Source: a bacterium
GTDB lineage: Bacteria > Patescibacteriota > Minisyncoccia > Portnoybacterales > UBA2143
Reading direction: 5' to 3'
NCBI GenBank assembly: GCA_043818835.1
Contig: JBDRFK010000008.1
Location: forward strand, 1 to 42,257
DNA length: 42,257 nucleotides
Shown: positions 3,514-28,730 of the stretch, piece by piece
How the letters are laid out: each line of letters opens with the position of its first letter
How positions within the stretch are numbered: position 1 is the stretch's first letter
Position numbers and translations under genes: made by a program
The notes under the pieces: model-generated
The model's input: only the letters and a program-made list of their open reading frames with translations
Databases searched by the model: none
What the model was told of the DNA's origin: nothing

Positions 3514-3524
3514 ATTAATTAAAA

Positions 3525-3968: not shown

Positions 3969-4203
3969 ATACAAATTTATCATCCCGAAATAGTTCTTGA
4001 AAAAAAATATATTCGGAATCGGAATAAAATATCTACCTAAGTAAATTAGCAGATAAGAAAATAAAAGTCAATAAATAAAAATTGAAGAGACGAGATTTTA
4101 CATCCTATCTCTAAACAAAGAAATTAAGATACGCTTCTTTACTTCAAAAGAAATGACTTGCATACATATTAACACCTTTGCGCATAAAATCAATAGAAAA
4201 GCC

Positions 4204-4234
4204 ATAACCCTCAAGCATTCTGCTTGAGGGTTAT
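4204..4234. terminator. Hairpin terminator after the 230-aa gene
   Basis: ataaccctcaagca-ttc-tgcttgagggttat, 14-bp stem. Confidence 0.75.
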
Positions 4235-4255
4235 TTATTAAAATCAACTTTTCTT

Positions 4256-4948
4256 TTAGGGAAACAACATTACAATACCGGCACCAAAGACCTCGTCTTC
4301 TATATAATAAACCGGAGTCAATGTTCCCCATATAGTTTCTAAATCAAAACTTAATTGGATCTTTTCAATTTCATCGGTATTGTGAGCAATTTCTAGCTTG
4401 ACATTCCCTAGGATTAGATCTACTCCAAAATCCCACAAGCCATCCGTCTCGTAAGACACAAAAGAAGTGATTATATCACACCACTTGTGTCTAGTCGCAA
4501 TAGTCACATTATTGTCTTGAAATGATCTACTCATCCCTAAGCCGAATTTATCCGTATGGAAATCAATACTCAACTCGTGCGTTGTGATATCATTAGTAAT
4601 AATCTCCCCAGCAGGAGAAACGCCAATATCATTTTCTTCCCTGACAAGAAAGCTGACATCAACAATCGGACCGATTGATTTAGATCCAGTTAATCCAAAA
4701 CTCCCCAATTTATCAGTTTCATTAGTTTCATCAATCTCTTCACTGTAAAAAGACAATGAAGTTCCGTGGTTAAGAGATATATTCACAAAAAAAGATTTAA
4801 CTTTCTCTTCGTCATAATCCATTCTTAATAGATTTTTCTCAATCAGACGCGGTACCGCATCTACCCTATTTTTAGCGTAAGTCTTGACTGTCATAAATAA
4901 AGACATAATAACCACTAATAATAATACCAAATTATCTCTTTTCTGCAT
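4256..4948 (-). CDS. Secreted, beta-strand-rich hypothetical protein (beta-barrel-like)
   Basis: Signal peptide ending TYA, short alternating hydrophobic strands, SD AAGGAG upstream. Confidence 0.8.
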   Translation of the reverse strand: MQKRDNLVLLLVVIMSLFMTVKTYAKNRVDAVPRLIEKNLLRMDYDEEKVKSFFVNISLNHGTSLSFYSEEIDETNETDKLGSFGLTGSKSIGPIVDVSFLVREENDIGVSPAGEIITNDITTHELSIDFHTDKFGLGMSRSFQDNNVTIATRHKWCDIITSFVSYETDGLWDFGVDLILGNVKLEIAHNTDEIEKIQLSFDLETIWGTLTPVYYIEDEVFGAGIVMLFP

Positions 4949-5061
4949 CTTTGGTCTCCTTTCACAGAATTAAGATGTTAATAAAAAGAACTTCTCCTTA
5001 ACTTCTTCCTCTCCCTATTTAATTAGCCAATTCTTACATATTAAACATTAAATGTCAACGT

Positions 5062-5095
5062 AAAGAGGGTGACCGTCTTAGGCGATCACCCCTTT
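5062..5095. terminator. Hairpin terminator after yjbQ
   Basis: aaagagggtgaccgtct...ggcgatcacccctt, imperfect stem directly after the stop. Confidence 0.65.
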
Positions 5096-5097
5096 GT

Positions 5098-5523
5098 TTA
5101 CCTGCTTGTAATTCTTATGTCCACTTTCCTTATTCGAGGACCATCAAACTCCATTAAAAATATTTGCTGATATCTACCAAGTTTAAGTTCATGATTATCA
5201 AGAGGGACTATAACACTATTGCCTATAATCATCGCTTTAATATGCGCAGAAGAATTCGTCGTGCCATCAGGATGTTGATGATGATAAAAAGTTGGTCCGT
5301 CCTTACTAATACCAGAATGCACCTTGCTATCTAACCAATTCTTAACATCTTTTTTTAACCCTTTCTCGTCTTCCATAATCGCTATAGCACAAGTAGTATG
5401 TTCAACGTAAACCGTCACAGCACCTTGCATAAAACCCTTTTTTCTAATTATTTTTTTAATTCTTTCCGTTATATTCCTAAATTCAACTTTTCCCTTAGTT
5501 CTAAATCCAGTCTGCACAACCAA
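5098..5523 (-). CDS. yjbQ: YjbQ/UPF0047 family protein
   Basis: HTTCAI..E, NSSAHIKA and LGRYQQIFLMEFDGPR motifs. By SD spacing the real start may be GTG at 5517. Confidence 0.92.
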   Translation of the reverse strand: MVVQTGFRTKGKVEFRNITERIKKIIRKKGFMQGAVTVYVEHTTCAIAIMEDEKGLKKDVKNWLDSKVHSGISKDGPTFYHHQHPDGTTNSSAHIKAMIIGNSVIVPLDNHELKLGRYQQIFLMEFDGPRIRKVDIRITSR

Positions 5524-5997: not shown

Positions 5998-8900
5998 CTA
6001 ATTTGAATGTACTTGATACGCAAAAGCATCAAGCACGTCTAAATCCAGAGGACCGCCATCAACATAAATTGACAATCCGGGAATATCACAGCCAGATAAC
6101 TGACATTCAGAAGCTCTTCCAGGCATACAACCAACAGGCGCTAAAGAGATATAAGGCCTCTTGTGTAACAGAACAGAACCAACCGTCAAAATAGCTTCTC
6201 CATGAGGAGTCTCCCCTATATAGGGAAGTCCTGCTTGAACAATATGTTTAATAGGATATTCTGGATGCCAACCAAATTGAGTAGCACAGACTTTATGTAA
6301 ACTGTTACTAATTATATTTCGTGCGAATTTTGCTACTCGAGATTCCTTAGCAACATACGAGGTATAATTCATCCATTCGCTTACATAAGCAAGATTCGCC
6401 CGCAAGCCACGTTGTTCCATCTCACGAATAATATATCCATTCAACCATGGTTCGCTACGAACATAAATCTCACCAACAACAGAAACATCAATAATCGCTT
6501 TCTTTTTGTCTGGATTAATAGTGAATGACTTAAACCCATTAACAGCGTTCTTTAGAAACAATAAAAGTCCCCACGATCCCAAGATATTCCATATATTATC
6601 GCCATGATTCCCTTGAGCCAAAAGTTGCTCAGCAGCGGTTAAGCATTTTTGATACCATTCATCAACCGCATTATGATCATCTACAATCGGGCGAATATAA
6701 TGCAACATCCGAGTCAATAAATCATTTACACAAATTGCTGACCATAATTTCAACCTCAAAAGCTTATCTAATCCATTTTGATAACCAGAAGAAGAGTTCA
6801 GAGAATAAATACCAACATTGTTGTAGCCTTCTTTATTTAAAACTATTTGCATCAACTGTTGATAAGCACCAAATCGACATGGTCCATTTGTTCCTGGAAG
6901 AAAAACGTTTACAGCCACATCTTCAGACTGATCTTGTAAATATTTCAACACACTTCCAATCACCGCCATACAAGGCGCGCATTCTTTGCCTGTGCAATGT
7001 TGTCTTCCTAAAGCAAAAGTCCCAGCATCAATCAGTGGTAAAGCTTCAGCGCTAATACCACGTGAATTAAAAACTGCTGCTAATAATCTATTTCCCTCAC
7101 TCATTGGAGATAAAATAAGATGCGCTCTTTGAAACGAACTGCTTTTCCGAACAAGAAAATTAACATCAGGATTTATAAACTTATTTCCATAATATTCCCT
7201 AATCATTATCGCTGTTGCCTCTACTCTCGTTTTATATCCCGCGCTACCAACCAGACCGTCAACTTGATAATTAGAGAACAAATAACCTGTCATTAACTTT
7301 TGTAAGAAATGCTCAACAAAAGAATCAGGACCGCACGCGAAACAGGAAAGCCAAACAGGATAAATTGATAAATCAGATTTACTTACAGCTACTGCTGCAC
7401 GTAAATTTAATTGTGCTTCACCCCAATATAAATCGAGGAGTGGAGCTTTGTCTAAAATATCTTTCGGTAAACAATCTATCGGCAAAGCGATAGTACCAGC
7501 CCGCTGAAATTCTTCAGAAATACCACTATTCATAATAGGTTCATACAAGATGTATGATCTACCCAACAAAAGTGCTATTGGCACCTTATGTAAGATACTA
7601 TAAGCAATAGCGTTCTTGCCAATTTCCTGACATTGCTCTTCAAATTCATTTTGAGCTGTACACGCTACAGTTAAAGCCGATTCAATCTGAGCTTTATCTA
7701 ACCCGGGTATAATTTGGCGTAAAGATTTTAATAGTTCGCCAATATTGCCCGGATTATCAAGACCCTTATCAAACTGTAGAATTGGATTAAGAACCGGACC
7801 ATTATTAACATTGCTAATCATATTTGGCAATGTTTGCGCCATTGGACATGTAACTTTGTCTCCGAGAGCATCAACAAATAATGATCCAATCTTAGGCAGA
7901 AAAACAGCATCAAGATTTGAATAATCCAACCCATGCACCAATTTAATTGGCGCACATAATTCCGAAGATCTGCATAAATTATTCCCTTTTTCCAAAGTTG
8001 TTTGATTAGGTTTTAATAAAATCACATCAAAACCTAAATATCCCAACAATTTTACAAAGAAAATTGCATATCTTGTCATTGATAAAGAATAAGGCACACC
8101 AATCATCTTAAAACCGAGACTATATGAATTAGAAATAAATTTAGAAAAAACTTTCTCTCTTTCCTTATATGGATTAGGCGCATCAATCGGCAACTTGTTA
8201 CCTTGCGAACTACCTTCATACTTCGGACACAACCCATTACTAACAACAGTAATTTTTTTACCTTTTGCTTCTATAATCGTTTTTTCTAAATTGCATTTAC
8301 CACCACACTTAGCGTCTTGACACAAAGTTGATTTTTTGGAAATAATTCCTGCATCAAGAAAATACTTAATGTCGAAAAAATCTTTAGCTTCTAATAATTT
8401 ACTTTTATGAGCATTAATTATTCTAATTGCTGCTCCACGTGCCCCGGCCATCCCGGGATTTACTGGAACAATAACATCTCTACCAGTAACTGCGGCAAAA
8501 GCAGTAGGTAATGCTTCAAGAACAGCCGGCGTTCCTTGTAAAACAATATCTCCAACAATCTCTCGTCCAGCCACAACAGCACGCACAAAATTTTGTACTA
8601 CTGCATAATATGCGCCAGCGAATATATCTGCTAATTCGGCTCCATTTTTATGCGCCAACAAGGCGTTGCCAAGAAAAAATACCGTACATCTCTCTCCGAA
8701 ATCTAATGGATTCGTAGCGGTTAAGGCCATTTTCCCAAATTCATCTAAGTCAATATCTTTTTTACTAAATTGTCTTAACAACTCTTCTAAAAAAGAACCT
8801 GTACCGGCCGAACAAACCAAATTCAATGCTTGATCAACTAATATACCGCCAACAACCTTACCATATTTACTATCCTGCCCTCCGAGGTCAAACATAGTAA

Positions 8901-10170
8901 AAATTTCTCTACCCATAGCAGAATAAGCAGCAGTTATATGCGCGATGACTTCATTTTCCACAAATATATTATTTTTTAAATGTGGAAAAATTGCGCGCGC
9001 CACCCGCTCTGCAGAATATCTCCCAGAGCCAGTAAAAACTAATGCCACAATGCTATTGCTAATAGATTTGCTTATGATATCTCTAACTATCTTTTTTACA
9101 GCACCAATTGGATCGCCACCCGTATTCTCATATCGTGAATATGTTATAGATCCTGTTTTGATATCCTGAAGAATAGCTTTTGTCCCCGTAGATCCTAAAT
9201 CAATAGATAAAATAATATCTGCAACATGCAAACAATCACTAATTTGACTTCCTTGACAATAAGTAATCTTATCTAAATAGCAAGACAAGGGTCTCAATTT
9301 AGGCTTATCTATTTCCTGGATTTGTCGATTTGATCGAAATACAGATAAATAATGACTATCTACGTTTTTTGCAGCTACCAATGCTGCGCCACAAGCTTCA
9401 AATAAGAATCCGCCATTCACTATTTCAGCATGCTCTATATTCATACATGACAAAATAGAATTACGAATGATATCAATATGAGCTACACCCCCACCGAACA
9501 AAAATAACCCATTAACTATATTCTTTTTTGTCCAACCGCCGATATAACAACCAACACATCGTAGAAAAGCTAAGATGACTTCTTCTTTTGGCATCCCTTC
9601 ATTACTCAAATGAACTCTATCGCTTTTAGACATTACTGGACAACGAGTATTAATTACTACATCAGTTTGAACGTTTTTTACCAATTCCCCGACATTTATC
9701 ATATCCAAACCATAAGGCGACAAAAACATTTCTATCCCCTGTCCTGTTCCACTGGAACAACGAGTATTACGATAAAAAGAAAATTTACCATCTTTTCTTG
9801 TGGCCAACATATAACTGCTCATACCTAAATTTAGATAATTCAGATCACCCTCAGGATATTTGTCGTTCAACGCTTCAACACAAGCATTATTTAAAACAAT
9901 ATCCATTAATTTACTTGATGAACAAATCTTATTCCTACACAGCAAACTAATTAATTTTTGACGCATTACCCCAGTCACAACAATCTTATCGCTCCCTGTA
10001 ACATCAGCATGTTGTTTGATAAAATCCAACGCTATTTGTATATTACCATCATAAAATAGCTTATCGCACGATATTATAAATAAAGATTTAAGAATATCGC
10101 CCGCCAATATTACAAACGCAACCTTCTTTACCCCAATATCAATACCTAAAAATTTCTTTATTTTTTCCAC
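5998..10170 (-). CDS. Acyl-CoA dehydratase activase fusion (two BadF/BadG/BcrA/BcrD ATPase domains plus DUF2229/HgdAB-like domains)
   Basis: GIDIG, RCSSGTG, TRCPV; IDLGSTGTK, TGSGR, DLGGQDSK, VCSAGTGSFLEE, ERCTVF; ELCAPIK, CFACGPDS, GPCRFGAY, VGEIYVR, GCMP. GTG start with SD AAGGAG. Confidence 0.92.
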   Translation of the reverse strand: MEKIKKFLGIDIGVKKVAFVILAGDILKSLFIISCDKLFYDGNIQIALDFIKQHADVTGSDKIVVTGVMRQKLISLLCRNKICSSSKLMDIVLNNACVEALNDKYPEGDLNYLNLGMSSYMLATRKDGKFSFYRNTRCSSGTGQGIEMFLSPYGLDMINVGELVKNVQTDVVINTRCPVMSKSDRVHLSNEGMPKEEVILAFLRCVGCYIGGWTKKNIVNGLFLFGGGVAHIDIIRNSILSCMNIEHAEIVNGGFLFEACGAALVAAKNVDSHYLSVFRSNRQIQEIDKPKLRPLSCYLDKITYCQGSQISDCLHVADIILSIDLGSTGTKAILQDIKTGSITYSRYENTGGDPIGAVKKIVRDIISKSISNSIVALVFTGSGRYSAERVARAIFPHLKNNIFVENEVIAHITAAYSAMGREIFTMFDLGGQDSKYGKVVGGILVDQALNLVCSAGTGSFLEELLRQFSKKDIDLDEFGKMALTATNPLDFGERCTVFFLGNALLAHKNGAELADIFAGAYYAVVQNFVRAVVAGREIVGDIVLQGTPAVLEALPTAFAAVTGRDVIVPVNPGMAGARGAAIRIINAHKSKLLEAKDFFDIKYFLDAGIISKKSTLCQDAKCGGKCNLEKTIIEAKGKKITVVSNGLCPKYEGSSQGNKLPIDAPNPYKEREKVFSKFISNSYSLGFKMIGVPYSLSMTRYAIFFVKLLGYLGFDVILLKPNQTTLEKGNNLCRSSELCAPIKLVHGLDYSNLDAVFLPKIGSLFVDALGDKVTCPMAQTLPNMISNVNNGPVLNPILQFDKGLDNPGNIGELLKSLRQIIPGLDKAQIESALTVACTAQNEFEEQCQEIGKNAIAYSILHKVPIALLLGRSYILYEPIMNSGISEEFQRAGTIALPIDCLPKDILDKAPLLDLYWGEAQLNLRAAVAVSKSDLSIYPVWLSCFACGPDSFVEHFLQKLMTGYLFSNYQVDGLVGSAGYKTRVEATAIMIREYYGNKFINPDVNFLVRKSSSFQRAHLILSPMSEGNRLLAAVFNSRGISAEALPLIDAGTFALGRQHCTGKECAPCMAVIGSVLKYLQDQSEDVAVNVFLPGTNGPCRFGAYQQLMQIVLNKEGYNNVGIYSLNSSSGYQNGLDKLLRLKLWSAICVNDLLTRMLHYIRPIVDDHNAVDEWYQKCLTAAEQLLAQGNHGDNIWNILGSWGLLLFLKNAVNGFKSFTINPDKKKAIIDVSVVGEIYVRSEPWLNGYIIREMEQRGLRANLAYVSEWMNYTSYVAKESRVAKFARNIISNSLHKVCATQFGWHPEYPIKHIVQAGLPYIGETPHGEAILTVGSVLLHKRPYISLAPVGCMPGRASECQLSGCDIPGLSIYVDGGPLDLDVLDAFAYQVHSN

Positions 10171-15998: not shown

Positions 15999-16025
15999 AG
16001 CACCCGCTACTTTGTAGCGGGTGCT
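15999..16025. terminator. Hairpin terminator after MutS-like gene 1
   Basis: agcacccgctac-ttt-gtagcgggtgct. Confidence 0.75.
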
Positions 16026-16038: not shown

Positions 16039-17961
16039 TTAATGATTTACAAGAAGTTTGTCTATCCCCTTCTCGCGAACCAATTCTTCAAATTGCCCTG
16101 TCCCAATCCCGACACTTATTATATGTCGTCGATTGATTTTAAAACATTGAACTCCTTTGTTTTCTAATTCTTCAAATAAACTAGTTATCTGAGAATTAAA
16201 AATCGTAGAAATTTTATACTTCCGTAGAGTTTGTACAAAACTCAACGAAAATTCCTTTCCAGAAATTTCTTGTGTTCCACCCCCCAATTCATCAATAAAC
16301 AAGAAAATTTTCTTGCTTTTATATTTTTTTACCTCCTTAAGTAAAATTTTTATCTGGTCTAAAACCATATTACACTTAGAGCCATCAGCCCCAGAAGGAA
16401 TAAATATCATCGCTAAAACATCTTTGATATTTATTTTCACCTCCCGTCCAAACGACAACAGGCCACTCTGAGCTTCAAAAATCAACTCAGGAAAAGATAA
16501 TCCAGTCACCGTTTTACCACCGTTATTCGCCCCACTAACACCTATAACTGTTCCATTGATAGCAGGTAAATTAATAATCGGCCGTATTTGTTTACCGTTA
16601 GTATTGTGGTTATGGAGTAGGTAAACAGGATAAGCCATTCTGGCACTAACCACGTTTTCTTTAGAGTCAATTTGCGGTTTGCATAACGGCCAACCATATT
16701 CATCCGATAAATTACAATAAGCACTAGCTATTTCGCTAACGGCTTTAAGACAATTAATGTGCTCATCAACAAATTTTCTATGCTCCTTAATTATCTTAAC
16801 CACTTTAGAAAACTCATTTTTATATAAGCCTTCTAAATCTACCCAAGCATACCTCTTATCCATCTTCGGCGCCGAAACAGTATGAAGTCGTTTAAAGAAA
16901 CCAGCATCTACAGTTTTAATATTTTTAATCACTTCGGCAACGTGTAAGGAGCGACAATAGTCATTATATGTCTCTCGATACAAGATTCTCGCTTCTTTAA
17001 TCTGCGCTTCCATTTTTTGCGAATAACCCGCGAAATGAGCAAAATTAAAATCATCTACACCATAATTTATCCGACTATTAGCTCCATAGATACGTATTTC
17101 TAACTTCTTGCCATTGTAGGAAAAATATACTTGAAAAGTTATATTATGCAACATAATAGCATCTTCAAATCCTTTTACAGCAGACACTATTGAATTCAAA
17201 CCTTTAGTGATATCATTAATGATATCACTATTCCAATCGTTGATTACCATTTCACGCATTATTTGATTCTGTTTACGACCGACGACATAAATGTTGCAGA
17301 TACCCTCTATCCACCTCCATAATTTTCTGGGTAAGATATTTCTCCAACGATTCAATTTTGAAGAAAAAGCGCAATGCCCATAAATACGATTTATATCTTG
17401 ATTACAATTATAGTGAGAAAAACCATAATTATAACCAAACGTCAGTATCCCCTCAAGAAATGCTGTTTTCTCGATCCTTTGAAACAAATCCCTACTCATT
17501 TGATTTTCAGTTTCTTCCAACGCCAAAGAATTTTTCAAACAATTAGTTAATTGTTTAATTCTCTTCGGCGCTTCTGGCGCATCAAACAAACTAATAAAAT
17601 TATGGACTTGTTGCCAATACGGATTGTGATCTTTCTCAGGATTGAAAAAAAACAGAAAATCATCTTGCTGAGTTGGTAAATTAGTATCTACATAAACATT
17701 TTTAATCCACTCTCTTAACTTTGGTTTTTGTGATAAAAACCAAAGCAAGTCCTGTCGCGCCTTGATTTCCGCTTCATCCGTAATCCCAAAGCTATTTACT
17801 AACAGATTATTATTCAACCCTCTACTCCTGATGATTGAGTCTCTATGAGGAAAATCGCCAATAATCTGTAATCTCTTGCTCTCCGGGATATCAGTCTCCC
17901 AAATAGTAAAATCTTTTGGATAGTTAATTTCTGGAATACTTTTCTTTACATCTTTACTCAT
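16039..17961 (-). CDS. Divergent MutS-related ATPase (domain V at C-terminus), paralog 1
   Basis: Walker A GANNGGKT, AQSG, Walker B FIDELGGGT; N-terminal TD..EI..RQ. ATG at 17961 lies 7 nt after AGGAGG (the ORF track starts at 17967). Confidence 0.82.
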   Translation of the reverse strand: MSKDVKKSIPEINYPKDFTIWETDIPESKRLQIIGDFPHRDSIIRSRGLNNNLLVNSFGITDEAEIKARQDLLWFLSQKPKLREWIKNVYVDTNLPTQQDDFLFFFNPEKDHNPYWQQVHNFISLFDAPEAPKRIKQLTNCLKNSLALEETENQMSRDLFQRIEKTAFLEGILTFGYNYGFSHYNCNQDINRIYGHCAFSSKLNRWRNILPRKLWRWIEGICNIYVVGRKQNQIMREMVINDWNSDIINDITKGLNSIVSAVKGFEDAIMLHNITFQVYFSYNGKKLEIRIYGANSRINYGVDDFNFAHFAGYSQKMEAQIKEARILYRETYNDYCRSLHVAEVIKNIKTVDAGFFKRLHTVSAPKMDKRYAWVDLEGLYKNEFSKVVKIIKEHRKFVDEHINCLKAVSEIASAYCNLSDEYGWPLCKPQIDSKENVVSARMAYPVYLLHNHNTNGKQIRPIINLPAINGTVIGVSGANNGGKTVTGLSFPELIFEAQSGLLSFGREVKINIKDVLAMIFIPSGADGSKCNMVLDQIKILLKEVKKYKSKKIFLFIDELGGGTQEISGKEFSLSFVQTLRKYKISTIFNSQITSLFEELENKGVQCFKINRRHIISVGIGTGQFEELVREKGIDKLLVNH

Positions 17962-17963
17962 AC

Positions 17964-18416
17964 TCAATCCTCCTTATGTTTAAGCAACAAATTCGTCATT
18001 AAATTATGTAATGCTTCTAATTCTAATTCCCCAGCTGTTCTGCCTTTACGATCATCTGGTAAATGTTCACCTAAACCACAAATTCCAAGTTTTAGAAAAT
18101 ATAATATTCTTCTAAACCTGCCTTCCCTATTTTCATAAGCCACAGAAATATGTTCTTGCAAAATAAATAGAGAAAATCCTACTCCCTCACCAACTTGTTT
18201 CTGTGTCTTACAAACCAAACAACAAAATTCAGAAGACTTTGATAACGGATCATAAAGACGATCGTATCGACACTCTCGGCAAACCAAGCAATAATGACAC
18301 GCCATAACAAAATCTTTTTCATGGTCATGAATCCATTCATCGGGCGGATGTTCTATAAGAATCATTCCAATCCGTCTTACTAAAAATTTCTTCCAAAAAC
18401 TTATCTTTTTAGACAA
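17964..18416 (-). CDS. Cys-rich putative Zn-binding hypothetical protein, coupled to MutS-like gene 1
   Basis: CHYCLVCREC...CCLVC; TTG start after AAGGAGG; stop abuts the next start. Confidence 0.75.
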   Translation of the reverse strand: MSKKISFWKKFLVRRIGMILIEHPPDEWIHDHEKDFVMACHYCLVCRECRYDRLYDPLSKSSEFCCLVCKTQKQVGEGVGFSLFILQEHISVAYENREGRFRRILYFLKLGICGLGEHLPDDRKGRTAGELELEALHNLMTNLLLKHKED

Positions 18417-18512
18417 AACAATCCTCCTTTGTATATGATGTTTTAAGTGTGCTCACTTTTAGATATTAAATAATAATTTTTTGGATAAGTCAACATCTGC
18501 TATAATAGACCT

Positions 18513-20510
18513 ATGCAATTTATAAAGAAAAATTGGTTTAAAATTTTGGTTGTATTTCTACTGCTTTTTATTTATAGCATTTCCTTAACTCATAAAATAA
18601 ATTTAACAACCGATGATCTGGGTCGCCATATCACCAATGGACAAATAATTTGGCAGACAAAAAGCATTCCTAAGATCAATTTCTATTCTTATACTGAACC
18701 AGATTTCCCTTTCTTGAACCACCACTGGCTGAGTGGCTTATTATTTTATTTCATATTTTTAATTGCCGGTTTCAATGGGTTAATTGCTTTCAAAATACTT
18801 GTTCTATTGGCAACTTTCTCAATTATATTCTATATTGCCACCAAAAAAAGTAATTTTTGGTTATCAGCCATTTTTGCGCTTCCTATTATAGTACTTTTAA
18901 ATGAACGTACCGATGTTCGCCCAGAGATTATTAGTTTTCTTTTTATCGCCATCTTCTTATATATATTAGTTTTTTATGGCAATAAAAACAGCAAAAAGAT
19001 ATTTTGGCTTGTTCCATTGCAACTAATTTGGGTTAATTGTCATATTTATTGGCCTATCGGCATTTTGATGGTTGGCGGTTTTTTATTCTCTAGAATTATT
19101 AGTTATTTTAATTTGTCATTCCCGCGAAAGTGGGAATCCAGAAATTATCGATTAGTACTGGATTCCCGCTTTCGCGGGAATGACAAGAAAATAATCAAAA
19201 AAATTGCTATTTTGCTACTATTGTTAATCTTGGTCACTTTCATCAACCCTGTTGGTTTGCGTGGCGTCACTTATCCATTAAGTATATTCAATAATTATGG
19301 TTACCAAATTGTAGAGAATAAATCTCCATTTTTCTTGGAGAATTTGATGCAGAACCCAATCATTCCATTTTTCAAAATCATTTCTTTTCTGCTTATTATC
19401 AGTTTTCTTTTCAATTTAGATAATTTTTCTTTATTCTATTTTCTCGCCTCTGTCGCCGTGGTCATTGGTAGTGGTAAAATGATACGCAATTTCCCTTTAT
19501 TGGCATTAATGTCCTTACCAATATTATCAATTAATTTTTCGCCTCCCTTCAATCATCTTCAAAAAAAATACTCTGGATATGCGAAATATATTAAAAAAAC
19601 ATTTCCCTATTTATATACTGTCCTTCTTATAATATTCATCGTTCTGCTTTTAAATAAAACTATAAAACTCAATAAAAAAGATTTGGGATTAGGTTTAGAA
19701 TTTCAGGCTAATAGTTCAGCGGAGTTTTTCAAAGAAAATAATTTGTCTGGACCATTATTTAATAACTACGATATCGGCAGTTACCTGATTTTTCATCTAT
19801 ATAATAGAGAGAACGTTTTTGTTGATAACCGCCCCGAAGCATATTCTAAAAATTTCTTTGAAAATATTTATAAACCAATGCAACAGAACGAAGAACAGTG
19901 GCAAAAACAACTTGAGAAATATAATTTTAATACTGTGTTTTTCACCCATCAAGAAGGAACACCATGGGGAAATCAATTTGTAGCCAGAACATTTAATGAT
20001 CCTGAGTGGATTTTAATTCATGCTGATACTCAAGCTGTTATATTTATAAAAAATATCCCGCAGAATGTAGGTATTATTGATAGATTCAGAATTACTCCTG
20101 ACAATATCGTCATAAAGATAACACCAGTTATAAATTCTTCCAATGTTAAAACACAATTATCAGCAGTTAATCTATTATCGTTAATCGGTAGAAATGATAT
20201 TGCACAAGATATTTGCCAAGAAATTATTGAGAAAAATCCCAAAGAAGTTAATGCTTATTTAGAATTATCATCAATTGAACTGCAATCTGGAACCAAAACA
20301 GGCTTACTATCGGCAAAAAGATACCTTGAAAAAGCAATACAAATTAAAAAACCGCTACCGTCAATCTATAATCAATTAGGGTTAATCAACTTTAATCTCG
20401 GTGAATACGAAGCAGCAAAAAAAGCCTGGCAAGGGGCTTTAAAAATAAACAAAAAGGACGACACAGCAAAGTATTATTTAGAACAATATAATAATCTTAA
20501 TCTGCCTTAA
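18513..20510 (+). CDS. Multi-pass membrane protein, GT-C glycosyltransferase-like, with C-terminal TPR
   Basis: DDLGRH..NG..I, NHHWL, RPE and DNRPEAY motifs; many TM helices; TPR-like end. TGcTATAAT 6 nt before the ATG suggests a leaderless mRNA. Confidence 0.8.
   Translation: MQFIKKNWFKILVVFLLLFIYSISLTHKINLTTDDLGRHITNGQIIWQTKSIPKINFYSYTEPDFPFLNHHWLSGLLFYFIFLIAGFNGLIAFKILVLLATFSIIFYIATKKSNFWLSAIFALPIIVLLNERTDVRPEIISFLFIAIFLYILVFYGNKNSKKIFWLVPLQLIWVNCHIYWPIGILMVGGFLFSRIISYFNLSFPRKWESRNYRLVLDSRFRGNDKKIIKKIAILLLLLILVTFINPVGLRGVTYPLSIFNNYGYQIVENKSPFFLENLMQNPIIPFFKIISFLLIISFLFNLDNFSLFYFLASVAVVIGSGKMIRNFPLLALMSLPILSINFSPPFNHLQKKYSGYAKYIKKTFPYLYTVLLIIFIVLLLNKTIKLNKKDLGLGLEFQANSSAEFFKENNLSGPLFNNYDIGSYLIFHLYNRENVFVDNRPEAYSKNFFENIYKPMQQNEEQWQKQLEKYNFNTVFFTHQEGTPWGNQFVARTFNDPEWILIHADTQAVIFIKNIPQNVGIIDRFRITPDNIVIKITPVINSSNVKTQLSAVNLLSLIGRNDIAQDICQEIIEKNPKEVNAYLELSSIELQSGTKTGLLSAKRYLEKAIQIKKPLPSIYNQLGLINFNLGEYEAAKKAWQGALKINKKDDTAKYYLEQYNNLNLP
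19113..19186. repeat. Full REP-like palindromic doublet inserted in frame in the GT-C gene
   Basis: 29-bp arms (one mismatch) with a 16-nt spacer; encodes LSFPRKWESRNYRLVLDSRFRGNDK. Confidence 0.92.
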
Positions 20511-21207
20511 ATCTTTCACGTATAATCGTCTTTACTGCCAACAGACCATCTTTAAATTTAATTTTCTTACCTTGATTATATCCGCGCCGATTATATTTTA
20601 TCGGCCGTTCAATTATTACCACTCCTTTTTTGAGGAGCTTAATAGTTAACTCTGGTTCTATTTCAAATTTTTCTGATTCCAAATTTAATGATTTTAAAAT
20701 GTCTGTCGGACACAATTTTAAACACGTCTCCATATCGGTTAAATTTGCATTAAAACATAAATTAGTTAAAGACGTTAAGAATCTATTAGCAATGTAGTGA
20801 AGCGTAAACCTGTTATTATATTTTTCTAAAAATCTTGACCCATAAACACTAATTTCTTTTTTCTCTGGCCAATTATTTTCAATGTCTTCTATTTCACTAA
20901 ATAAAAAAGAGATGTCTTCTGGAGCATATTCCAAATCAGCATCGTAAATAATAGAATACAAGCCAGTCACCCAACACAAACCAGTACGAATTGCTGCGCC
21001 CTTACCCCTATTTTGACTATGTCCAACTAATTCAAATTTATACTTTTTTTTAAGTTCTGATAATTTTTCAAATGTCCCGTCTTTAGAACAATCATCAACA
21101 AAGATAATCTCTTTATTAATTTTTAAATCTGTAACAGACCGAACAACATCACCTATCAAATCAATCTCATTAAAAACTGGGATAATTATAGATATTTTTG
21201 ACTGCAT
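20497..21207 (-). CDS. GT2 family glycosyltransferase (polyprenol-phosphate sugar synthase-like)
   Basis: IIIPVFNE, VDDCSKDGT, NRGKGAA, DADLEY and TDMET motifs. Confidence 0.93.
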   Translation of the reverse strand: MQSKISIIIPVFNEIDLIGDVVRSVTDLKINKEIIFVDDCSKDGTFEKLSELKKKYKFELVGHSQNRGKGAAIRTGLCWVTGLYSIIYDADLEYAPEDISFLFSEIEDIENNWPEKKEISVYGSRFLEKYNNRFTLHYIANRFLTSLTNLCFNANLTDMETCLKLCPTDILKSLNLESEKFEIEPELTIKLLKKGVVIIERPIKYNRRGYNQGKKIKFKDGLLAVKTIIRERFKAD

Positions 21208-21227
21208 AATTTATATTTATTTACTAC

Positions 21228-21488
21228 AAAAAAAACGCGGCACAAATACCAACGTATTTAATAATACCACTCTTTGTTAAACACAACAAACAAAATAAAA
21301 AAAACACCGAAGCCGGGGGTTGCCATATTGATTGTTTTTATAAATCAAATTAAGAAAGGAGGAATCCCGCAGCTTCGGATAATTTATTTGATGATATTTT
21401 TGGACGCGATGAGGCAATCTGAGAAGCATATATTTACTGTACGCCTCACCGCACTTAATTAATCTTAAACAAAGAACCAATAATGAAT
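21228..21488 (-). ncRNA. Candidate structured RNA or leader: three hairpins, two ending in U8 tracts
   Basis: Stems at 21406-21452, 21307-21378 and 21237-21270, with G-U pairs valid only on the minus strand; promoter directly upstream. Confidence 0.55.
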
Positions 21489-21494
21489 AAAACA

Positions 21495-21523
21495 ATACTA
21501 ACAAATTTATTTTTGTATGTCAA
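21495..21523 (-). promoter_or_regulatory. Sigma70-like promoter TTGACA-17-TAGTAT with extended TG
   Basis: -35 at 21523-21518, -10 at 21500-21495. Confidence 0.65.
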
Positions 21524-22886
21524 TAGTATAATAAGTCGCCACTAAACCCAGAAATAACCACAGAATTAATTGACCCTGCTGTAGGGTCCATAGAAAATGA
21601 TCCATCAAGCCAATAGATAGCAAAGAAAATATTATAAAAAATAGAGTTAATATTATAAAATAGTCATTCTTTTGTTTTTTTACAAAGACAATCATATTCC
21701 TAACGAGTGAAAATATAAAGAATAAGAATACAGACAGACCAAACAAACCAACTTCACTGGCAATAAGCAAATAGATATTATGAACTGGTTGGTGCGTCCA
21801 ATCAGCCAACAAACTTAAAAAACTTCGCATATTCCAAACAAAATTGCCCAATCCCAGACCAATAAATGGATAATCGGCAATATTTATCAATGCTGTTTCA
21901 TTATAAAAATTTCTCAGAGTTATTGATTCTTCCGTAGAAGATATTTTAAATCTGGAAAAAATTTCAGGTTTCGCTAAATTTACAAACACTGAACACAGAA
22001 TTATCAATACAAATAAAATAAATATTGTTCTTTTCATCAAGCTAATATCTTTATTTTTTTTGGCTTTAACAAATGAAAAGATAAAGTAAATTATACTTAC
22101 TATTAATGTAATCGCGATAATTGTGCGCGAAAAAGTTAATAACAAAGAAAAAAGAAAAACAAAATACGCAATCATTAGTAAGCAATTCTTAGTAAATGTA
22201 TGTTTTTTTGTAGTCCAAATATAATATAAGAATAAAATATTAACTAATAAAAAAGCCGCTAAAATATTCGGATGCGGAAATACACCATAGACGCGGAGCA
22301 TTTTAACCCCACCGACTACAATCTTGGCCACCCCGCCTATTTCTGTATTTAATGGACTTTCAGCTAAGTATTTCAATCCCAGACTGTGCTGTTTGGCATA
22401 TTGCAATATAGCAATACATGCTTGAACCAAACCACTTGCTAAAAAAATATGAACTAATTTCCTAAACTTAATTTTAGAAATATTGTCGTCATCTTCTTCT
22501 ATGTCCTTAAGGGTCAGATTGCTTCTAATGTAGAAAAATAAAATAATAAATTCCATCAACTTAGATATTTGATAAAAACCCAAACCGACATTATCTGCGA
22601 AGGATATAGACACAAAACTAATAATGAAAAATAAAATAAGCCAAAAAACAGGACTTTTAATAAGTCCCTCTGTTTTAATTTCTAAATTTTTAAAAAATCT
22701 CTTAGATTTATAGCGCCAAAACCATAAGAGAAAAATTAAAACAAGCAAAATATCCGTCCCATATAGAAAAGCCGACGTCCATTCATTAAACCCAGTATTA
22801 GACCATTGATATAAAATAACTCTCGTTTGGAGAGGTATTAGGAAAATGAAAATAAAAAATAAAAATCTCTCTATCTTTTTAAACAT
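21507..22886 (-). CDS. O-antigen ligase / Wzy_C family membrane protein (possible pilin oligosaccharyltransferase)
   Basis: RVYGVFPHPN, TFSR, GLGLGNF and PVHNIYL motifs; many TM helices. Confidence 0.9.
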   Translation of the reverse strand: MFKKIERFLFFIFIFLIPLQTRVILYQWSNTGFNEWTSAFLYGTDILLVLIFLLWFWRYKSKRFFKNLEIKTEGLIKSPVFWLILFFIISFVSISFADNVGLGFYQISKLMEFIILFFYIRSNLTLKDIEEDDDNISKIKFRKLVHIFLASGLVQACIAILQYAKQHSLGLKYLAESPLNTEIGGVAKIVVGGVKMLRVYGVFPHPNILAAFLLVNILFLYYIWTTKKHTFTKNCLLMIAYFVFLFSLLLTFSRTIIAITLIVSIIYFIFSFVKAKKNKDISLMKRTIFILFVLIILCSVFVNLAKPEIFSRFKISSTEESITLRNFYNETALINIADYPFIGLGLGNFVWNMRSFLSLLADWTHQPVHNIYLLIASEVGLFGLSVFLFFIFSLVRNMIVFVKKQKNDYFIILTLFFIIFSLLSIGLMDHFLWTLQQGQLILWLFLGLVATYYTIDIQK

Positions 22887-22908
22887 TATTGTGTAATATC
22901 AAATAAAG

Positions 22909-24159
22909 TCACAACCTACTAAACTCTTCTTTGATAATTTCTCTATCATCCCACTTAATTTTTTCTCCTCTATCAACACACATCCACGGTTCACATCCTT
23001 TTCCTGTAATAATCACTATATCCCCTTCTTTAGCCAATTGCAATGCCTTTTTAATCGCCTCGCGACGATCAATAATTTTTTCTATTTTCTTATCTATAAC
23101 CCCACTTGCCACTTCATCAACGATCGTTTGCGGATTCTCATCATACGGATCTTCATTAGTAATGATAATCTCATCACAATACTTTTCCGCTATTTTCCCC
23201 ATCTCTGGCCTTTTCCATTTATCCCTGCCACCACCAGCTGAACCCAAAACACTAATTAATCGCCCATCAAAAACTTTTCTAAGGGTTTGATATACTTTCT
23301 CCAATGCATCTGGAGTATGCGCATAATCAGCGATTACTGTAAACGACTCTCTAATAACAATTTCTAACCTTCCAGGAATACCTAAAATTTCCGTTAAAGC
23401 CGATTTTATTTTTGTTAAAGATATGTCTTCGGACACACCAACGGTTATTGCTGCTAAAGTATTATAAATATTAAATTTGCCTAATAAATTTGTATTAATT
23501 TCTACATTATCCAACATAAAACTTGTACCCTTATTATCTAATTGAATATCTTTAGCCCTGATAACAGCCTTTGAATCAATCCCATAACTCCATTGTTTTG
23601 GCTTGTCAAAACCCAAAAAATATTCAGCATTAACATCATCAATATTAATAATAGATTTTCCCTTAAAACCAAGTGTTTTAAACAATTTTCCTTTGGCTTC
23701 TTTGTATTTTTCAAAACTTCCATGAGATTCAATATGTTCTGGCGTGATATTAGTCAGAACTGCTGTATTAAACTTAATAAATTTATGACGATATTGCTTA
23801 ATTCCTTCTGATGTAACCTCTAAGACTAAATATTTGCAATCCTCGTCAACCGCCTGACGTATAAACTGCTGTATTTTTAAACGACCAGGCATAGTCATTT
23901 TTAAATCGTTATCCCAAATATTATCACCTACTTTAAATTGAATAGAAGAAACTGCTGCTGTTTTATATCCAGCGCTTTCTAAAATACGACTTACCAAATA
24001 AACAACTGTTGATTTGCCATTAGTTCCCGTCACGCCAATTATTTTTAATTCTTTAGACGGAAAACTATAAACAACAGCGCCTAAAAACGCCAACATCCAA
24101 TGATACCAGCTAAAAATAAATTTAGGTATTATCTTTTTGAGTATTTTTTTCATTATCAT
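22909..24159 (-). CDS. murE: UDP-N-acetylmuramoyl-tripeptide synthetase MurE
   Basis: GVTGTNGKST, EVTS, PGRLE, DYAHTPD, GGGRD and EDPYDE motifs. Confidence 0.93.
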   Translation of the reverse strand: MIMKKILKKIIPKFIFSWYHWMLAFLGAVVYSFPSKELKIIGVTGTNGKSTVVYLVSRILESAGYKTAAVSSIQFKVGDNIWDNDLKMTMPGRLKIQQFIRQAVDEDCKYLVLEVTSEGIKQYRHKFIKFNTAVLTNITPEHIESHGSFEKYKEAKGKLFKTLGFKGKSIINIDDVNAEYFLGFDKPKQWSYGIDSKAVIRAKDIQLDNKGTSFMLDNVEINTNLLGKFNIYNTLAAITVGVSEDISLTKIKSALTEILGIPGRLEIVIRESFTVIADYAHTPDALEKVYQTLRKVFDGRLISVLGSAGGGRDKWKRPEMGKIAEKYCDEIIITNEDPYDENPQTIVDEVASGVIDKKIEKIIDRREAIKKALQLAKEGDIVIITGKGCEPWMCVDRGEKIKWDDREIIKEEFSRL

Positions 24160-24887
24160 ATTTTTATAAAATTACCTACAAGATACATCTTAAGCCAATC
24201 AAGGAACTTATTATCAATTATTTGTTCTATATGAATAGCTGGTCGTGCTAATATCTTACAAAAAGCAATATATTCTGGGTTACCAACTCTAATCAATTCT
24301 TTAATCTCAAAATTATTACTATGAGCCAAACTTAATAATTTAGTATATGTATTTGCCCTATAAAAAGCATTGTGCGCCTGTTTCTGTTTCTTGAGTATAT
24401 TTTTTATTAAAAAATTATGCAACCTAAGTGGAGTTATCTTACTCAACATCATAATTGGGTTTAAAACATTAGGCGTTAAAAAAATTAAAACACCTCCTTT
24501 TTTTAATACACGATTAAACTCATTAAATACTAATTCTGGCTTACGTAGATGTTCTACCACAAAATCACACGTAATAACGTCTATTGAATTATCGCTTAGT
24601 GGAATATTTTCTAAATCAGCTAAAATTTTTCTATTAACAATCTTGTTTTCATATAAAGCACTGTGATTATTATCAATACCAACAATTTCTTTTGCAATTG
24701 GCTTAACTATTTCAACCACCCCTCCGCCACCGCACCCAGCATCCAAAACAATTGTCTGACAATTAACATATTCTTTTAGATATTCTATATAATAACAACC
24801 CGCTTTTTTAAACTTAGGATAAACATTTTTCAATTCATCCGAGACAAACATCTTTTGTTCGCTATTATCCTTAAATAAAATATTCAT
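24156..24887 (-). CDS. Class I SAM-dependent methyltransferase
   Basis: VLDAGCGGG, VVEHL and RVLKKGG motifs. Confidence 0.92.
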   Translation of the reverse strand: MNILFKDNSEQKMFVSDELKNVYPKFKKAGCYYIEYLKEYVNCQTIVLDAGCGGGGVVEIVKPIAKEIVGIDNNHSALYENKIVNRKILADLENIPLSDNSIDVITCDFVVEHLRKPELVFNEFNRVLKKGGVLIFLTPNVLNPIMMLSKITPLRLHNFLIKNILKKQKQAHNAFYRANTYTKLLSLAHSNNFEIKELIRVGNPEYIAFCKILARPAIHIEQIIDNKFLDWLKMYLVGNFIKI

Positions 24888-24940
24888 TGATTTGCTAATT
24901 TACCCATTACCTTCATCATACTATTTTTAGACGACAATTT

Positions 24941-24973
24941 AAAGAGGCTTGCGATATTATCGCAAGCCTCTTT
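24941..24973. terminator. Hairpin terminator after MutS-like gene 2
   Basis: aaagaggcttgcgata-t-tatcgcaagcctcttt. Confidence 0.78.
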
Positions 24974-24986
24974 TGTTATTAAGACT

Positions 24987-27002
24987 TTAATTTCTATTTC
25001 TGGACAGAAATTTATTTATTCCCACTTCTTTCATCAAATCATCTAAACCTCCGGTACCACCAATACCCTCGTTTATTTGGTAATCTCTATCTAAATGGAG
25101 ACATTGAACACCTAACTCTTTATTTGAACGTTCAGCTAACTCGTATAGTTGTGTATTACCAACCACGCTACAAGCCTCTAATTCAAATAATATATCTAAC
25201 CCAGCCTCTACTCCATCTTTAATTTCTTCACCAATAACAATTTGGTTTCCGGTGCCTACTTCATCCATAACAATAAAGATATCTTCTCTAGGCACTTCAC
25301 GAATACCTTCCATAACTTTCATGGTTTTATACATGAAAAGCTCAGTTAAAGAACCTTCTCCCTGCCCTTCAATAAAAACTAATCCCAATATTTTCTTAAT
25401 ATTCAATCTAAGTTTTTCGCCAAAATTCGGCAACCCAGATTGCGCCAAAAGAATAGTATACGGAAATAAAACATTTAATACTGTCTTGCCGCTTTTATTA
25501 GGACCAACAATTATAACCCTATCTCCATTTAAAGGCGGAAAGTTGCGGACAGGACGTATCTCTCTAGGTTTAATACCTTTCTGATTAACAACTTTTTTGC
25601 GACCAATTAAATGGAATGGATAAAGTTGATTAAAAGTAAAAACATGTTCACCATTCTCAGTAATTTCTGGGAAATTTAACGGCATATTCCATCTTTTTAC
25701 CTTACACAACAACATTTCCGCAATTTCGGCAACATCTTTCAAAATTAACAAATGTTCTCTAACCCAACTTCTATAATCATCTACCCCTCTGTAAAAATCT
25801 TCAAGAGCAGGTCCAGTCAACAATTCTTTCACAGCATACCAGCCACATTCCATTTCCATGTCATAAGTCATTGGTAAAATAATTGAACCATCGCACGAAC
25901 CAGGAACATTCTTTTCAAACAAATTCATCAATTTTAAATCATAATTTCTCCTATATCTTTCTATAAGTTTATTGTGTAAATTAACATTCGCAACCGCAAT
26001 TTTTGTTTTTGTGAATGGACTATAGCCTTCGAAATCGTAATCAAAACCATAAAATACCCGACAATTTTCTCTTTCAACATCTACTTGAACCGAGACTACT
26101 TGTGCATGTAATCCATCTCTTTCGTAATAAAAATGAATATCAACAAAAAAGTCCGATGGCAAATTTAAATCATAGGTTCCCAGTAGTAATTTAGCGACAA
26201 ACTTTTTTAAACTCCCTTCTACTGCTATTGGCAACTCAGTTATTACCAAAGGAGCGTAAAAAAACATCCCCCTTATCCAATTATAGAACCAGATTACTAA
26301 TCGCAAAAAATAGCCAATGCCAAAGCACCATTCAGCAACTTTCTTTTTGGTCCACTTAGGCACATTAATTTTCGGCAAAATACCAGTCAAACCAAAAGAA
26401 TATTTCTTATAGCCTATTACTTTTTCTTTTACTAACCTACTATTACTACCATTACCATTAACCCTGAAAGTAACCATACCATTGAATTGGACTGATCGAC
26501 TTAACTTATTAGCCACCGACCCTGACAAAGACTTTTCTCTCTCTTCTGCCTTATCCGCTGTTGTTTCAATAAAATCCAATATTTCATTGAATTCCTTTGA
26601 AACATTCTTCCCTTTTTGCTTATCTTTCCTGAAATCCATTTTTTCAATCAACGAGTGTAACAATTGCCAAAACGGGTTATGTTTTTTTGAGGGATTAAAA
26701 TGATCCAAAAATTCTTGACTTCCGAAAGGAATCCGTAGCTTGTTGAATAATGGATTTTTAAGAAAAAATTTACGGATATCAGGTCGCTCAATAAAAAGCC
26801 TCAAGATATTTTGTCGCCGAATAATTTCTTCTCGATCGGTTATTCCAAACGAGTCCACAAGCCTACTATTATTAATACCCAGCAATTTTAATACTTTTTC
26901 AAGATTAAAATCTTCTTCGTTGATTATCCTGATTTTATCCTCTTCTTTTATATCCGCGTTCCAGCACTTTACTTTTGGATATTCAAACTTTACCACTGCC
27001 AA
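24987..27002 (-). CDS. Divergent MutS-related ATPase, paralog 2
   Basis: Walker A GPNKSGKT, AQSG, Walker B VMDEVGTG; aligns by eye along paralog 1. Start is TTG 27002 or GTG 26996. Confidence 0.82.
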   Translation of the reverse strand: MAVVKFEYPKVKCWNADIKEEDKIRIINEEDFNLEKVLKLLGINNSRLVDSFGITDREEIIRRQNILRLFIERPDIRKFFLKNPLFNKLRIPFGSQEFLDHFNPSKKHNPFWQLLHSLIEKMDFRKDKQKGKNVSKEFNEILDFIETTADKAEEREKSLSGSVANKLSRSVQFNGMVTFRVNGNGSNSRLVKEKVIGYKKYSFGLTGILPKINVPKWTKKKVAEWCFGIGYFLRLVIWFYNWIRGMFFYAPLVITELPIAVEGSLKKFVAKLLLGTYDLNLPSDFFVDIHFYYERDGLHAQVVSVQVDVERENCRVFYGFDYDFEGYSPFTKTKIAVANVNLHNKLIERYRRNYDLKLMNLFEKNVPGSCDGSIILPMTYDMEMECGWYAVKELLTGPALEDFYRGVDDYRSWVREHLLILKDVAEIAEMLLCKVKRWNMPLNFPEITENGEHVFTFNQLYPFHLIGRKKVVNQKGIKPREIRPVRNFPPLNGDRVIIVGPNKSGKTVLNVLFPYTILLAQSGLPNFGEKLRLNIKKILGLVFIEGQGEGSLTELFMYKTMKVMEGIREVPREDIFIVMDEVGTGNQIVIGEEIKDGVEAGLDILFELEACSVVGNTQLYELAERSNKELGVQCLHLDRDYQINEGIGGTGGLDDLMKEVGINKFLSRNRN

Positions 27003-28700: not shown

Positions 28701-28730
28701 TTGTCATTCCCGCTTTCGCAGGAATGACAA
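28701..28730. repeat. REP-like palindrome, GTCATTCCCG subfamily (short form)
   Basis: ttgtcattcccgctttcgcaggaatgacaa, upstream of rpsT. Confidence 0.8.

Follow-up and report, generated by a model that had tools for sequence, protein, structure and literature searches.

ATPases of the MutS type are textbook DNA-repair machines and, more recently, have come to be seen as ribosome-rescue machines as well. In Bacillus subtilis, MutS2 is recruited to collided ribosomes by its KOW and SMR domains, splits them with its ABC ATPase and then hands over to RqcH, according to PMC10897456. Less familiar members of the superfamily are described in the survey by Lin, Nei and Ma (2007, PMC2190696): MutS4A and MutS4B are stand-alone MutS domain-V proteins of unknown function, found as two diverged paralogs per genome and encoded side by side, the stop codon of one gene overlapping the start codon of the next, and MutS3A and MutS3B form unlinked pairs with the ATPase near the C-terminus, sparsely spread across distant bacteria and suspected of horizontal transfer. 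Here we describe two genes, A and B, on a contig of 42,257 nucleotides (JBDRFK010000008.1, contig 8 of its assembly; hereafter the window) from a bacterium of the Portnoybacterales with a low-GC genome of 0.45 Mb, 81% complete. An earlier note on this DNA had read the two genes as a pair of atypical MutS-family ATPases. Our comparisons show that both are intact and indicate that they very probably belong, as distant relatives, to a single unnamed branch of MutS-type ATPases.

Genes A (P0001) and B (P0002) were found in the window as open reading frames (ORFs) of 642 aa at 16039..17967 and 671 aa at 24987..27002, both on the minus strand. Their likely starts are an ATG at 17961 and a GTG at 26996, each 6–7 nt behind the sequence AAGGAGGA, and strong Shine-Dalgarno sites lie ahead of both genes. 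With these starts gene A (16039..17961, stop codon at 16039-16041) would encode 640 aa and gene B (24987..26996, stop codon at 24987-24989) 669 aa; the gene B protein is identical to a stored cluster representative of 669 aa (P0004) beginning MVKFEYP. Compared by BLASTP, the two proteins are 26% identical over 678 columns with both covered end to end (E 1e-60), a likeness far beyond chance, and this confirms the initial observation of two ~650-aa paralogs, 7 kb apart, that align throughout.

Both proteins possess the hallmarks of the MutS superfamily, namely Walker A, AQ.G, the signature Ser, Walker B and the C-terminal helices of domain V, and the peptides and motifs that the note had quoted are all present in the translations. 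Walker A reads GANNGGKT in gene A (16510-16533) and GPNKSGKT in gene B (25482-25505), AQSG occurs in both, and Walker B reads FIDELG and VMDEVG, with the Asp-Glu pair encoded at 16288-16293 and 25260-25265, respectively. Where MutS proteins read S/T-T-H at the switch, gene A has NSQ and gene B has NTQ, the Gln codons lying at 16189-16191 (Gln593) and 25149-25151 (Gln618). The domain-V ABC ATPase occupies 16042..16629 of gene A (approximately residues 447-642, as placed by the family profile and by hhalign to MutS2) and 24990..25607 of gene B (placed by Pfam, PDB chain 9kce_B and the alignment to gene A), on the minus strand in each case. Pfam MutS_V matched gene B at 19.6 bits (E 1e-3) against a gathering score of 30.2 and did not match gene A, PDB sequence searches with the two proteins gave MutS2 at E values of 3e-4 (gene B, 9kce_B) and 0.04, and word-index searches returned few relatives, 3 and 17 proteins. 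Pfam gave no MutS_I, MutS_II or Smr match in either protein, in agreement with the earlier note, which had recognized neither a mismatch-binding nor an Smr domain.

A phmmer search with gene A as query against 1.84 billion cluster representatives revealed 258 matches at E ≤ 1e-3, 223 at ≤ 1e-10 and 163 at ≤ 1e-30, mostly of 620-720 aa and aligned over their full length. Across 130 aligned full-length members, six residues never vary (G197, G479, K485, S530, D559 and E560; here and below such residue numbers are those of P0001), and all six are kept in both genes. The switch Gln, Q593, is conserved in 99% of the family, while all 16 of the 16 MutS1/MutS2 outgroups compared carry His at this position; the Gln switch first noticed in genes A and B is a family-wide trait. 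The degenerate G.S.F signature also claimed for them does not stand, as Ser (S530) is invariant in the 130 members and the family consensus reads G-S-T. Gene A retains 56 of 70 conserved columns, the eighth lowest value among the 130 members, and gene B retains 62, with a family median of 65. The family hidden Markov model (HMM) scores the two window genes at E 3e-194 and 2e-189, and both proteins display the features by which we delimit the family: full-length alignment, the motifs SFGI.D..EI..R and HNP.W, the TQ-type switch and monophyly.

When searched against PDB, the family profile matched MutS2 chains at E 5e-16 to 3e-14 and MutS/MSH proteins at ~2e-8, in the ATPase part only. Alignment of the family to the MutS2 alignment by hhalign gave 99.4% over 199 columns and reached the last helix of domain V; a shortened C-terminus had been described, and this is correct insofar as nothing follows domain V and incorrect insofar as domain V itself is complete to its last helix. 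All members of a 43-member sub-alignment match the mutS2 and KamC models weakly (best E 4.6e-17 and 3e-16), 34 of the 43 match MutS_V at E ≤ 1e-3, one matches MutS_III, and a few members exceed the MutS_V cut-off (P0059 with 34.5 bits, the L047 protein with 33.9 bits). No Smr domain was found by Pfam in gene A, gene B, the 43 members or 8 long members, KOW having been sought through Pfam only, and neither the 43 nor the 8 long members contain a recognizable effector domain (nuclease, TIR, Sir2 or the like). Longer fused forms were searched for and none was found, which is weak evidence by that search, and a metagenome scan with the gene-A subclade found nothing. Our literature searches found no description of the family.

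The position of the family within the superfamily was examined in ATPase-domain trees of 63, 82 and 98 rows. In all three, the family lies on one side of a branch with an SH-like approximate likelihood ratio (SH-aLRT) support of 100, and in the 98-row tree, where it accounts for 55 rows, separate clades are formed by MutS2 (19 rows, support 99), MutS1 (9 rows, 99), tandem pairs of ~490 aa (9 rows, 94) and short proteins consisting of domain V only (6 rows, 99). By these trees the family is monophyletic and stands apart from MutS1, MutS2, the MutS4-like pairs and the short V-only forms, which upholds the proposal of an atypical subfamily.

MutS2 (TIGR01069; RqcU; PDB 9kce, 7vuf, 7qv3, 8qpp) is the best-scoring solved relative of the family ATPase domain. 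Like the family it is without MutS domains I and II, as stated in PMC10897456, and its core is of similar length. It differs in having KOW and Smr, both missing from the family, and a His where the family has the switch Gln; the N-terminal 445 aa of the family are not alignable to MutS2, and the clades are separate. On the TIGR01069 model, which has a cut-off of 400 bits, gene A scores 16 bits and the best of the 43 members reaches E 4.6e-17, below the cut-off, which 33 of 51 metagenome outgroups attain; genuine MutS2 proteins score 425-854 bits.

The best NCBIfam match of gene A is KamC (NF052383, E 1e-10, 41 bits), the lysine 5,6-aminomutase reactivase ATPase, which is likewise of MutS type and, by the name of its model, works outside nucleic-acid repair. 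Membership in KamC was rejected: the scores are 41 and 16.5 bits against a cut-off of 300 bits, and there are no aminomutase genes in the window. Since genuine MutS2 proteins also score 138-215 bits on the KamC model, the match reflects only general kinship within the wider MutS2-like lineage. Literature searches returned nothing on MutS-like reactivases, and jumbo phage MutS only in generic mentions.

The resemblance to MutS4A/MutS4B lies in the stand-alone domain V and the two diverged paralogs in one genome. In contrast to the adjacent and overlapping MutS4 genes, genes A and B are separated by 7 kb and five intervening genes and occupy separate insertion sites. Tandem domain-V genes with overlapping stop and start codons, encoding proteins of ~490 aa as opposed to ~650 aa in the family, were encountered at three metagenome loci (L106:1926-4867, L107:7661-10626 and L124:155-3080); by gene organization only, these are MutS4A/B-like. 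The second gene of the L107 pair shows no Walker B in a simple motif search, and the tandem pairs have no NCBIfam match at 1e-20 and no fluoride riboswitch beside them at the Rfam gathering score. MutS3A/MutS3B, which we compared by description only, differ in their paired occurrence from the family, in which a single copy is the rule (14/14). The six short V-only proteins, a separate clade with His in the switch, may or may not be MutS3. With MutS1/MSH proteins the family shares the ABC ATPase domain V, Walker A and B, AQ.G, the signature Ser and the dimerizing C-terminal helices, and it differs from them in having neither domain I nor domain II, in its Gln switch, in a profile E value of only ~2e-8 and in its separate clade.

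The earlier note had treated genes A and B as a pair, possibly a heterodimer or a system, and had suggested a count of paralogs per genome as a check. We found a single full-length copy in each of the 14 other carrier genomes, drawn from either clade (one of them has, besides, an unrelated weak ATPase-only match), and one family gene in each of 6 metagenome loci with long flanks. The family tree splits into two main clades (96 and 50 rows, support 98 for both), and genes A and B lie on opposite sides, gene A in the larger and gene B in the smaller. The nearest relatives of gene A are P0009 (46%) and P0010 (42%), with which it forms a 3-row clade of support 100; gene B belongs to a 22-row set, starred in our tree, that includes a phage-borne copy described below. 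An approximately unbiased (AU) test rejects genes A and B as sisters (lnL difference 108, p 0.0026), and recent local duplication was discarded as their origin on this test. Because the other carriers have one copy from either clade, the family appears to work without a partner, and because both copies keep every catalytic residue, neither contributes a degenerate site. A working pair, heterodimer or system is not supported; the two genes stem from opposite clades, sit in two slots and have no conserved partner gene.

The separate slots become apparent by comparison with four relatives of the same family as the window. Two of these (G025 and G018) contain a block running from ribosomal protein S20 through RuvA-FemAB-MurLigase-Wzy_C to YidD-MFS-PolX, and the other two (G002 and G028) contain it as far as Wzy_C. 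The gap between FemAB and the Mur ligase gene is empty in G018, holds one small ORF in G002 and G025 and holds two PurL-like genes in G028; in the window it holds gene B and a class-I SAM methyltransferase gene (24156..24887, minus strand; Pfam Methyltransf_11). The PurL-like (FGAR amidotransferase) pair of G028, at L070:2691-7722, lies on the opposite strand. Since it stands where the window has gene B, the FemAB-Mur ligase junction is a site of recurrent gene gain. The gap between Wzy_C and YidD holds other genes in the relatives (OTCase, Memo/AMMECR1, a PHP-like protein), and in the window it holds a glycosyltransferase, a TPR membrane protein, a Cys-rich ORF (P0007) and gene A. A third site was seen in carrier G075, whose family copy has UvrA on one side and a thioredoxin-like gene on the other; in 5/5 congeners these flanking genes either adjoin each other or are parted by unrelated small ORFs. 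Since adjacency to repair genes follows from the insertion site, it is no evidence of function. Among FemAB matches in genomes of the window's family, about half contain one in-frame stop (TGA, TAA or TAG), the match probably overrunning the gene end.

Genes A and B lie in separate transcription units, each followed by a strong inverted repeat of its own. A perfect 12-bp inverted repeat with 8 G-C pairs (15999..16025) lies 14 nt behind the gene A stop; it was scored on the plus strand by a terminator-like scan, and the palindrome should form in the minus-strand transcript too. Behind gene B, also at 14 nt from the stop, a 15-bp inverted repeat (24941..24973) lies between gene B and the methyltransferase gene. 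A promoter-like scan of the window did not stand out from shuffled sequence (74 sites, with 66 +/- 8 in the shuffles). P0007 (150 aa, 17964..18416, minus strand) is separated by 2 nt from the gene A start and is probably co-transcribed with gene A. It has CxxC-type Cys clusters and matches nothing in Pfam or PDB, and other family members have no equivalent of it next to them. Relative G020, in which a search for MutS-like genes came up empty, encodes a homologue (41% identity, E 3e-33), and synteny is not shared. P0007 was rejected as a partner of the family, being unrelated to orf111 of G075 and to the ORFs before the G104 copy, which are themselves mutually unrelated. Clustering of neighbours across 18 genome loci yielded no conserved neighbour, the annotated ones being varied housekeeping genes. 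Both genes are host-like in GC and codon use, and a recent foreign island was rejected on composition. Pieces of the contig are near-identical (0-2 differences per piece) in runs of four groundwater and biofilm studies dated 2016-2024. Both genes would seem to be old, stable acquisitions.

The family is so far confined to Patescibacteria, or candidate phyla radiation (CPR) bacteria, and one phage. Scanning a set with one genome for each prokaryote species by means of a degenerate pattern, which detects only members with the motif LAQSGLP[VI]F, gave 17 confirmed loci, 17/17 from Patescibacteria-type metagenome-assembled genomes, including two labelled Gammaproteobacteria; carriers belong to the Nomura-, Nealson- and Falkowbacteria, the Paceibacterota and the Saccharibacteria. 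By the family HMM, a full-length member is present in 2/400 other genomes of a phylum sample and 2/400 of a class sample, a prevalence of ~0.5%. The phylum sample of 401 genomes gave 32 other matches, which cover the ATPase part alone; most of those listed come from ORFs as long as MutS1 (835-918 aa), and no hit of MutS2 length was seen. Carriers are isolated among their kin (1/6 and 1/61 genomes in the families of two carriers, 1/7 in one genus), and a search with gene B found a member in 0/35 genomes of the window's own family, 12 of which were searched again by profile. A metagenome member at L076:5091-7088 is split into two consecutive ORFs of 269 and 373 aa, perhaps through a frameshift, pseudogenization or misassembly.

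The phage member is a divergent, full-length protein of 728 aa encoded by ORF 3003-5189 of an IMG/VR contig (L071/G471; 53,425 bases, CheckV 30% complete). It aligns to the family at 100% over 621 columns by hhalign, has an STQ switch and falls within the deep clade of gene B. PHROGs annotation of the contig (baseplate-wedge, helicase, dUTPase, tRNA-nucleotidyltransferase, amidase) identifies a tailed phage, and the start of the gene overlaps the end of an upstream phrog_12005 ORF. Two further IMG/VR scans gave no additional phage members, that is, one viral contig in three scans, and INPHARED phages and PLSDB plasmids gave no match.

The region ahead of the ATPase, ~445 aa in length (16636..17961 in gene A, minus strand, by the conservation map), is specific to the family and carries the conserved motifs YP..W, SFGI.D..EI..R, HNP.W, E..E, G..YS and F.GYS. 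It shows no sequence kinship to the N-terminal parts of MutS2 and MutS1 (hhalign, 0.2% and 5%), and a profile of this region alone had 0 matches in PDB at E ≤ 10. A low-confidence ESM Atlas model (pLDDT 0.49) aligns over residues 10-633 to short MutS/MutS2 clusters with a TM of 0.53, and a cluster of language-model look-alikes, in which 44% of members have MutS_III, scores 0.90; these are weak hints that the region may be a MutS-like lever or clamp. Within it lies the segment that the earlier note had called Trp-rich and amphipathic. It does contain Trp, and by composition it is a basic insert and not a membrane helix, with a median net charge of +5.5 and 3 Trp across the family. In gene A (residues 197-282; 17122..17379, minus strand) it has 11 K+R, 7 D+E, 4 W and a maximum hydropathy of 0.91, and in gene B (residues 197-291; 26130..26414, minus strand), where it is also hydrophobic, 12 K+R, 6 D+E, 4 W and a maximum of 1.42. 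A membrane anchor was rejected, since the insert exceeds the Kyte-Doolittle threshold of 1.6 in only 4/130 members and both window genes are below it.

What might such a protein do? We propose that each copy was gained separately, long ago, by horizontal transfer and that each would act alone as a MutS-like homodimer, the two ATPase heads closing on ATP to form a clamp or switch. Nucleic acid would be gripped by the N-terminal arms with their basic insert, recombination intermediates of DNA or incoming DNA being the likeliest substrates, and the protein would be carried as a mobile accessory gene with no role in mismatch repair or MutS2-type ribosome rescue. Because the catalytic Glu is invariant, the ATPase of the family is probably active. 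With Gln in the H-loop, contact with the gamma-phosphate would be retained, and hydrolysis would perhaps be slower. In TAP1, Gln is the natural residue at the H-loop His position. A review of ABC exporters (PMC7756269) states that the H-loop contacts the gamma-phosphate and that transport stays wild-type-like when the His is mutated to Gln or Asn in the consensus site of ABCC1; by these mutants, the Gln may tune the cycle and not abolish hydrolysis. Activity outside mismatch repair, as the earlier note had also held, is almost certain because the proteins are without domain I or II and the host genome, as far as it is complete (81%), has no MutL (PF01119) gene; searches of it likewise gave no Smr gene and no RqcH (NFACT_N) gene. 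The roles that the earlier note had suggested, namely defence, host interaction or ribosome sensing, are guesses.

We are highly confident in the identity of the family and its evolutionary history. The clamp-on-DNA mechanism is offered tentatively and falls somewhat short of an even chance, and the reading as a whole (family identity, separate acquisition and a homodimeric ATP-gated clamp) could prove right or wrong with about equal probability. Several points weigh against it. Homology in the ATPase part is the sole basis of the mechanism, no sequence relative having been detected for the N-terminal 445 aa, and the only backing for arms and a clamp is the low-confidence Atlas model (pLDDT 0.49, TM 0.53). 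The neighbours are mixed, including DNA genes (UvrA/C, RuvA, PolX, RmuC, Pif1, RNR) as well as translation and secretion genes (L10, YchF, BipA, HPF, trigger factor, NusA, SecA), and cannot decide between DNA and an RNA or ribosome target. Extreme patchiness together with the phage copy fits a role in conflict or defence as well as it fits a housekeeping clamp. The trees cover MutS1, MutS2, the tandem pairs and the short V-only forms, and the family could nest inside MutS3 or archaeal MutS5; the group submitted to the AU test was defined following inspection of a first tree.

That fit with conflict gives the most serious alternative, which we nevertheless consider unlikely: an anti-phage defence consisting of one mobile gene, or else a counter-defence or superinfection-exclusion function derived from phage, in which the N-terminal region is the effector, the MutS-like ATPase senses foreign DNA and two diverged copies would widen specificity. 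Sporadic presence (~0.5% of sampled genomes, 1/7 in the genus of a carrier), location in variable slots at three independent sites, the full-length member on a tailed-phage contig in gene B's clade, neighbours elsewhere that are typical of accessory regions (Fic; a Pif1 helicase with an S24 peptidase) and weak PADLOC mad8 matches (E 3.5e-4 and 0.027) all point this way. Yet the 43 and the 8 long members have no recognizable effector domain, the 18 genome loci have neither a conserved partner nor defence genes among their annotated neighbours, the corresponding slots of relatives are occupied by metabolic genes (PurL-like, OTCase, Memo/AMMECR1), only one viral contig turned up in three IMG/VR scans with none in INPHARED or PLSDB, composition is fully host-like, and the PADLOC matches are partial and marginal, PADLOC having been run on the two genes alone. 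A defence-island context was rejected, the neighbours being cell-wall, repair and metabolic genes and ~30 loci giving no pointers to defence. In a more specific version, which we rate as rather unlikely, a single-gene conflict module exchanged with phages would serve in cellular defence, phage counter-defence or exclusion; the Gln H-loop would give a long-lived ATP-bound state, a 445-aa domain of new fold would act on foreign DNA, and the genome would have stacked two specificities from ancient clades. Were this true, the family would represent the first immune sensor of MutS type, one specific to CPR bacteria.

A ribosome- or RNA-directed ATPase, that is, a CPR substitute for MutS2/RqcU that clamps and splits stalled or collided ribosomes, its N-terminal module standing in for KOW and Smr, seems to us quite improbable. 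It would suit the position of MutS2 as the closest solved relative of the ATPase part and its splitting of collided ribosomes in B. subtilis (PMC10897456), the lack of a MutS2-length match in the 401-genome phylum sample, where most ATPase-only matches are listed in ORFs of 835-918 aa, and the several translation-factor neighbours (L10, YchF, BipA, HPF, trigger factor). However, recruitment of MutS2 needs KOW and SMR and ends in the hand-over to RqcH (PMC10897456), the family has neither domain, and this genome, at 81% completeness, has no Smr or NFACT_N gene; a core translation factor is unlikely to be present in only ~0.5% of genomes or in 1/7 species of a genus, and the neighbourhood is uninformative. 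An obligate A/B heterodimer, forming one asymmetric clamp like MSH2-MSH6 or MutS4A/MutS4B, is very improbable. Two diverged paralogs on the same strand, 7 kb apart in a 0.45-Mb genome, would be consistent with it, as would the greater departure of gene A from consensus (56 against 62 of 70) and the existence of paired MutS paralogs, unlinked for MutS3A/B and adjacent for MutS4A/B (PMC2190696), but one copy from either clade suffices in 14/14 other carriers, every catalytic residue is kept in both copies, the transcription units and insertion sites are separate, each with its own strong hairpin, and the AU test rejects local duplication. That one or both genes are decaying relics is scarcely credible: against the low rank of gene A in conserved-column retention (eighth lowest of 130) and the split metagenome member L076 stand reading frames intact over 640 and 669 codons, the six invariant residues, strong Shine-Dalgarno sites and near-identity in contigs of four studies from 2016-2024.

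Two further features of the window were recorded. A 23-nt palindromic element (GTCATTCCCGCGAAAG[CT]GGGAAT type) is present in 5 copies where 0 are expected, at 19115-19137 (plus strand), 19162-19184 (minus strand), 805-827, 28706-28728 and 41890-41912. The first two, inverted relative to each other, lie inside ORF 18513-20510 and are read in frame (SFPRKWESRNYRLVLDSRFRGNDKK). Over 19061-19611 the contig is covered at a depth of 41-1876 in four metagenome runs, compared with ~0-9 in neighbouring bins of the same ORF, and the element is therefore extremely abundant in those communities. The window also encodes a protein of 1390 aa (5998-10170, minus strand) with a BcrAD_BadFG ATPase and DUF2229, of the CoA-enzyme activase type, which is large for a 0.45-Mb genome.

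Taken together, the value of these observations lies in the family and not in the gene pair. New here are a genome with two copies, the empty-site comparisons, the patchiness within a genus and a phage-borne member. In ultra-small CPR bacteria, most sampled genomes of which have no recognizable MutS (32/401 had one), the same ATPase engine is found joined to a large front half of unknown kind and to a changed catalytic switch. The family offers a test of what a His-to-Gln change does to the ABC cycle, and the target that it grips, be it DNA junctions, incoming DNA, ribosomes or something else, would show how minimal, DNA-scavenging cells handle nucleic acids.

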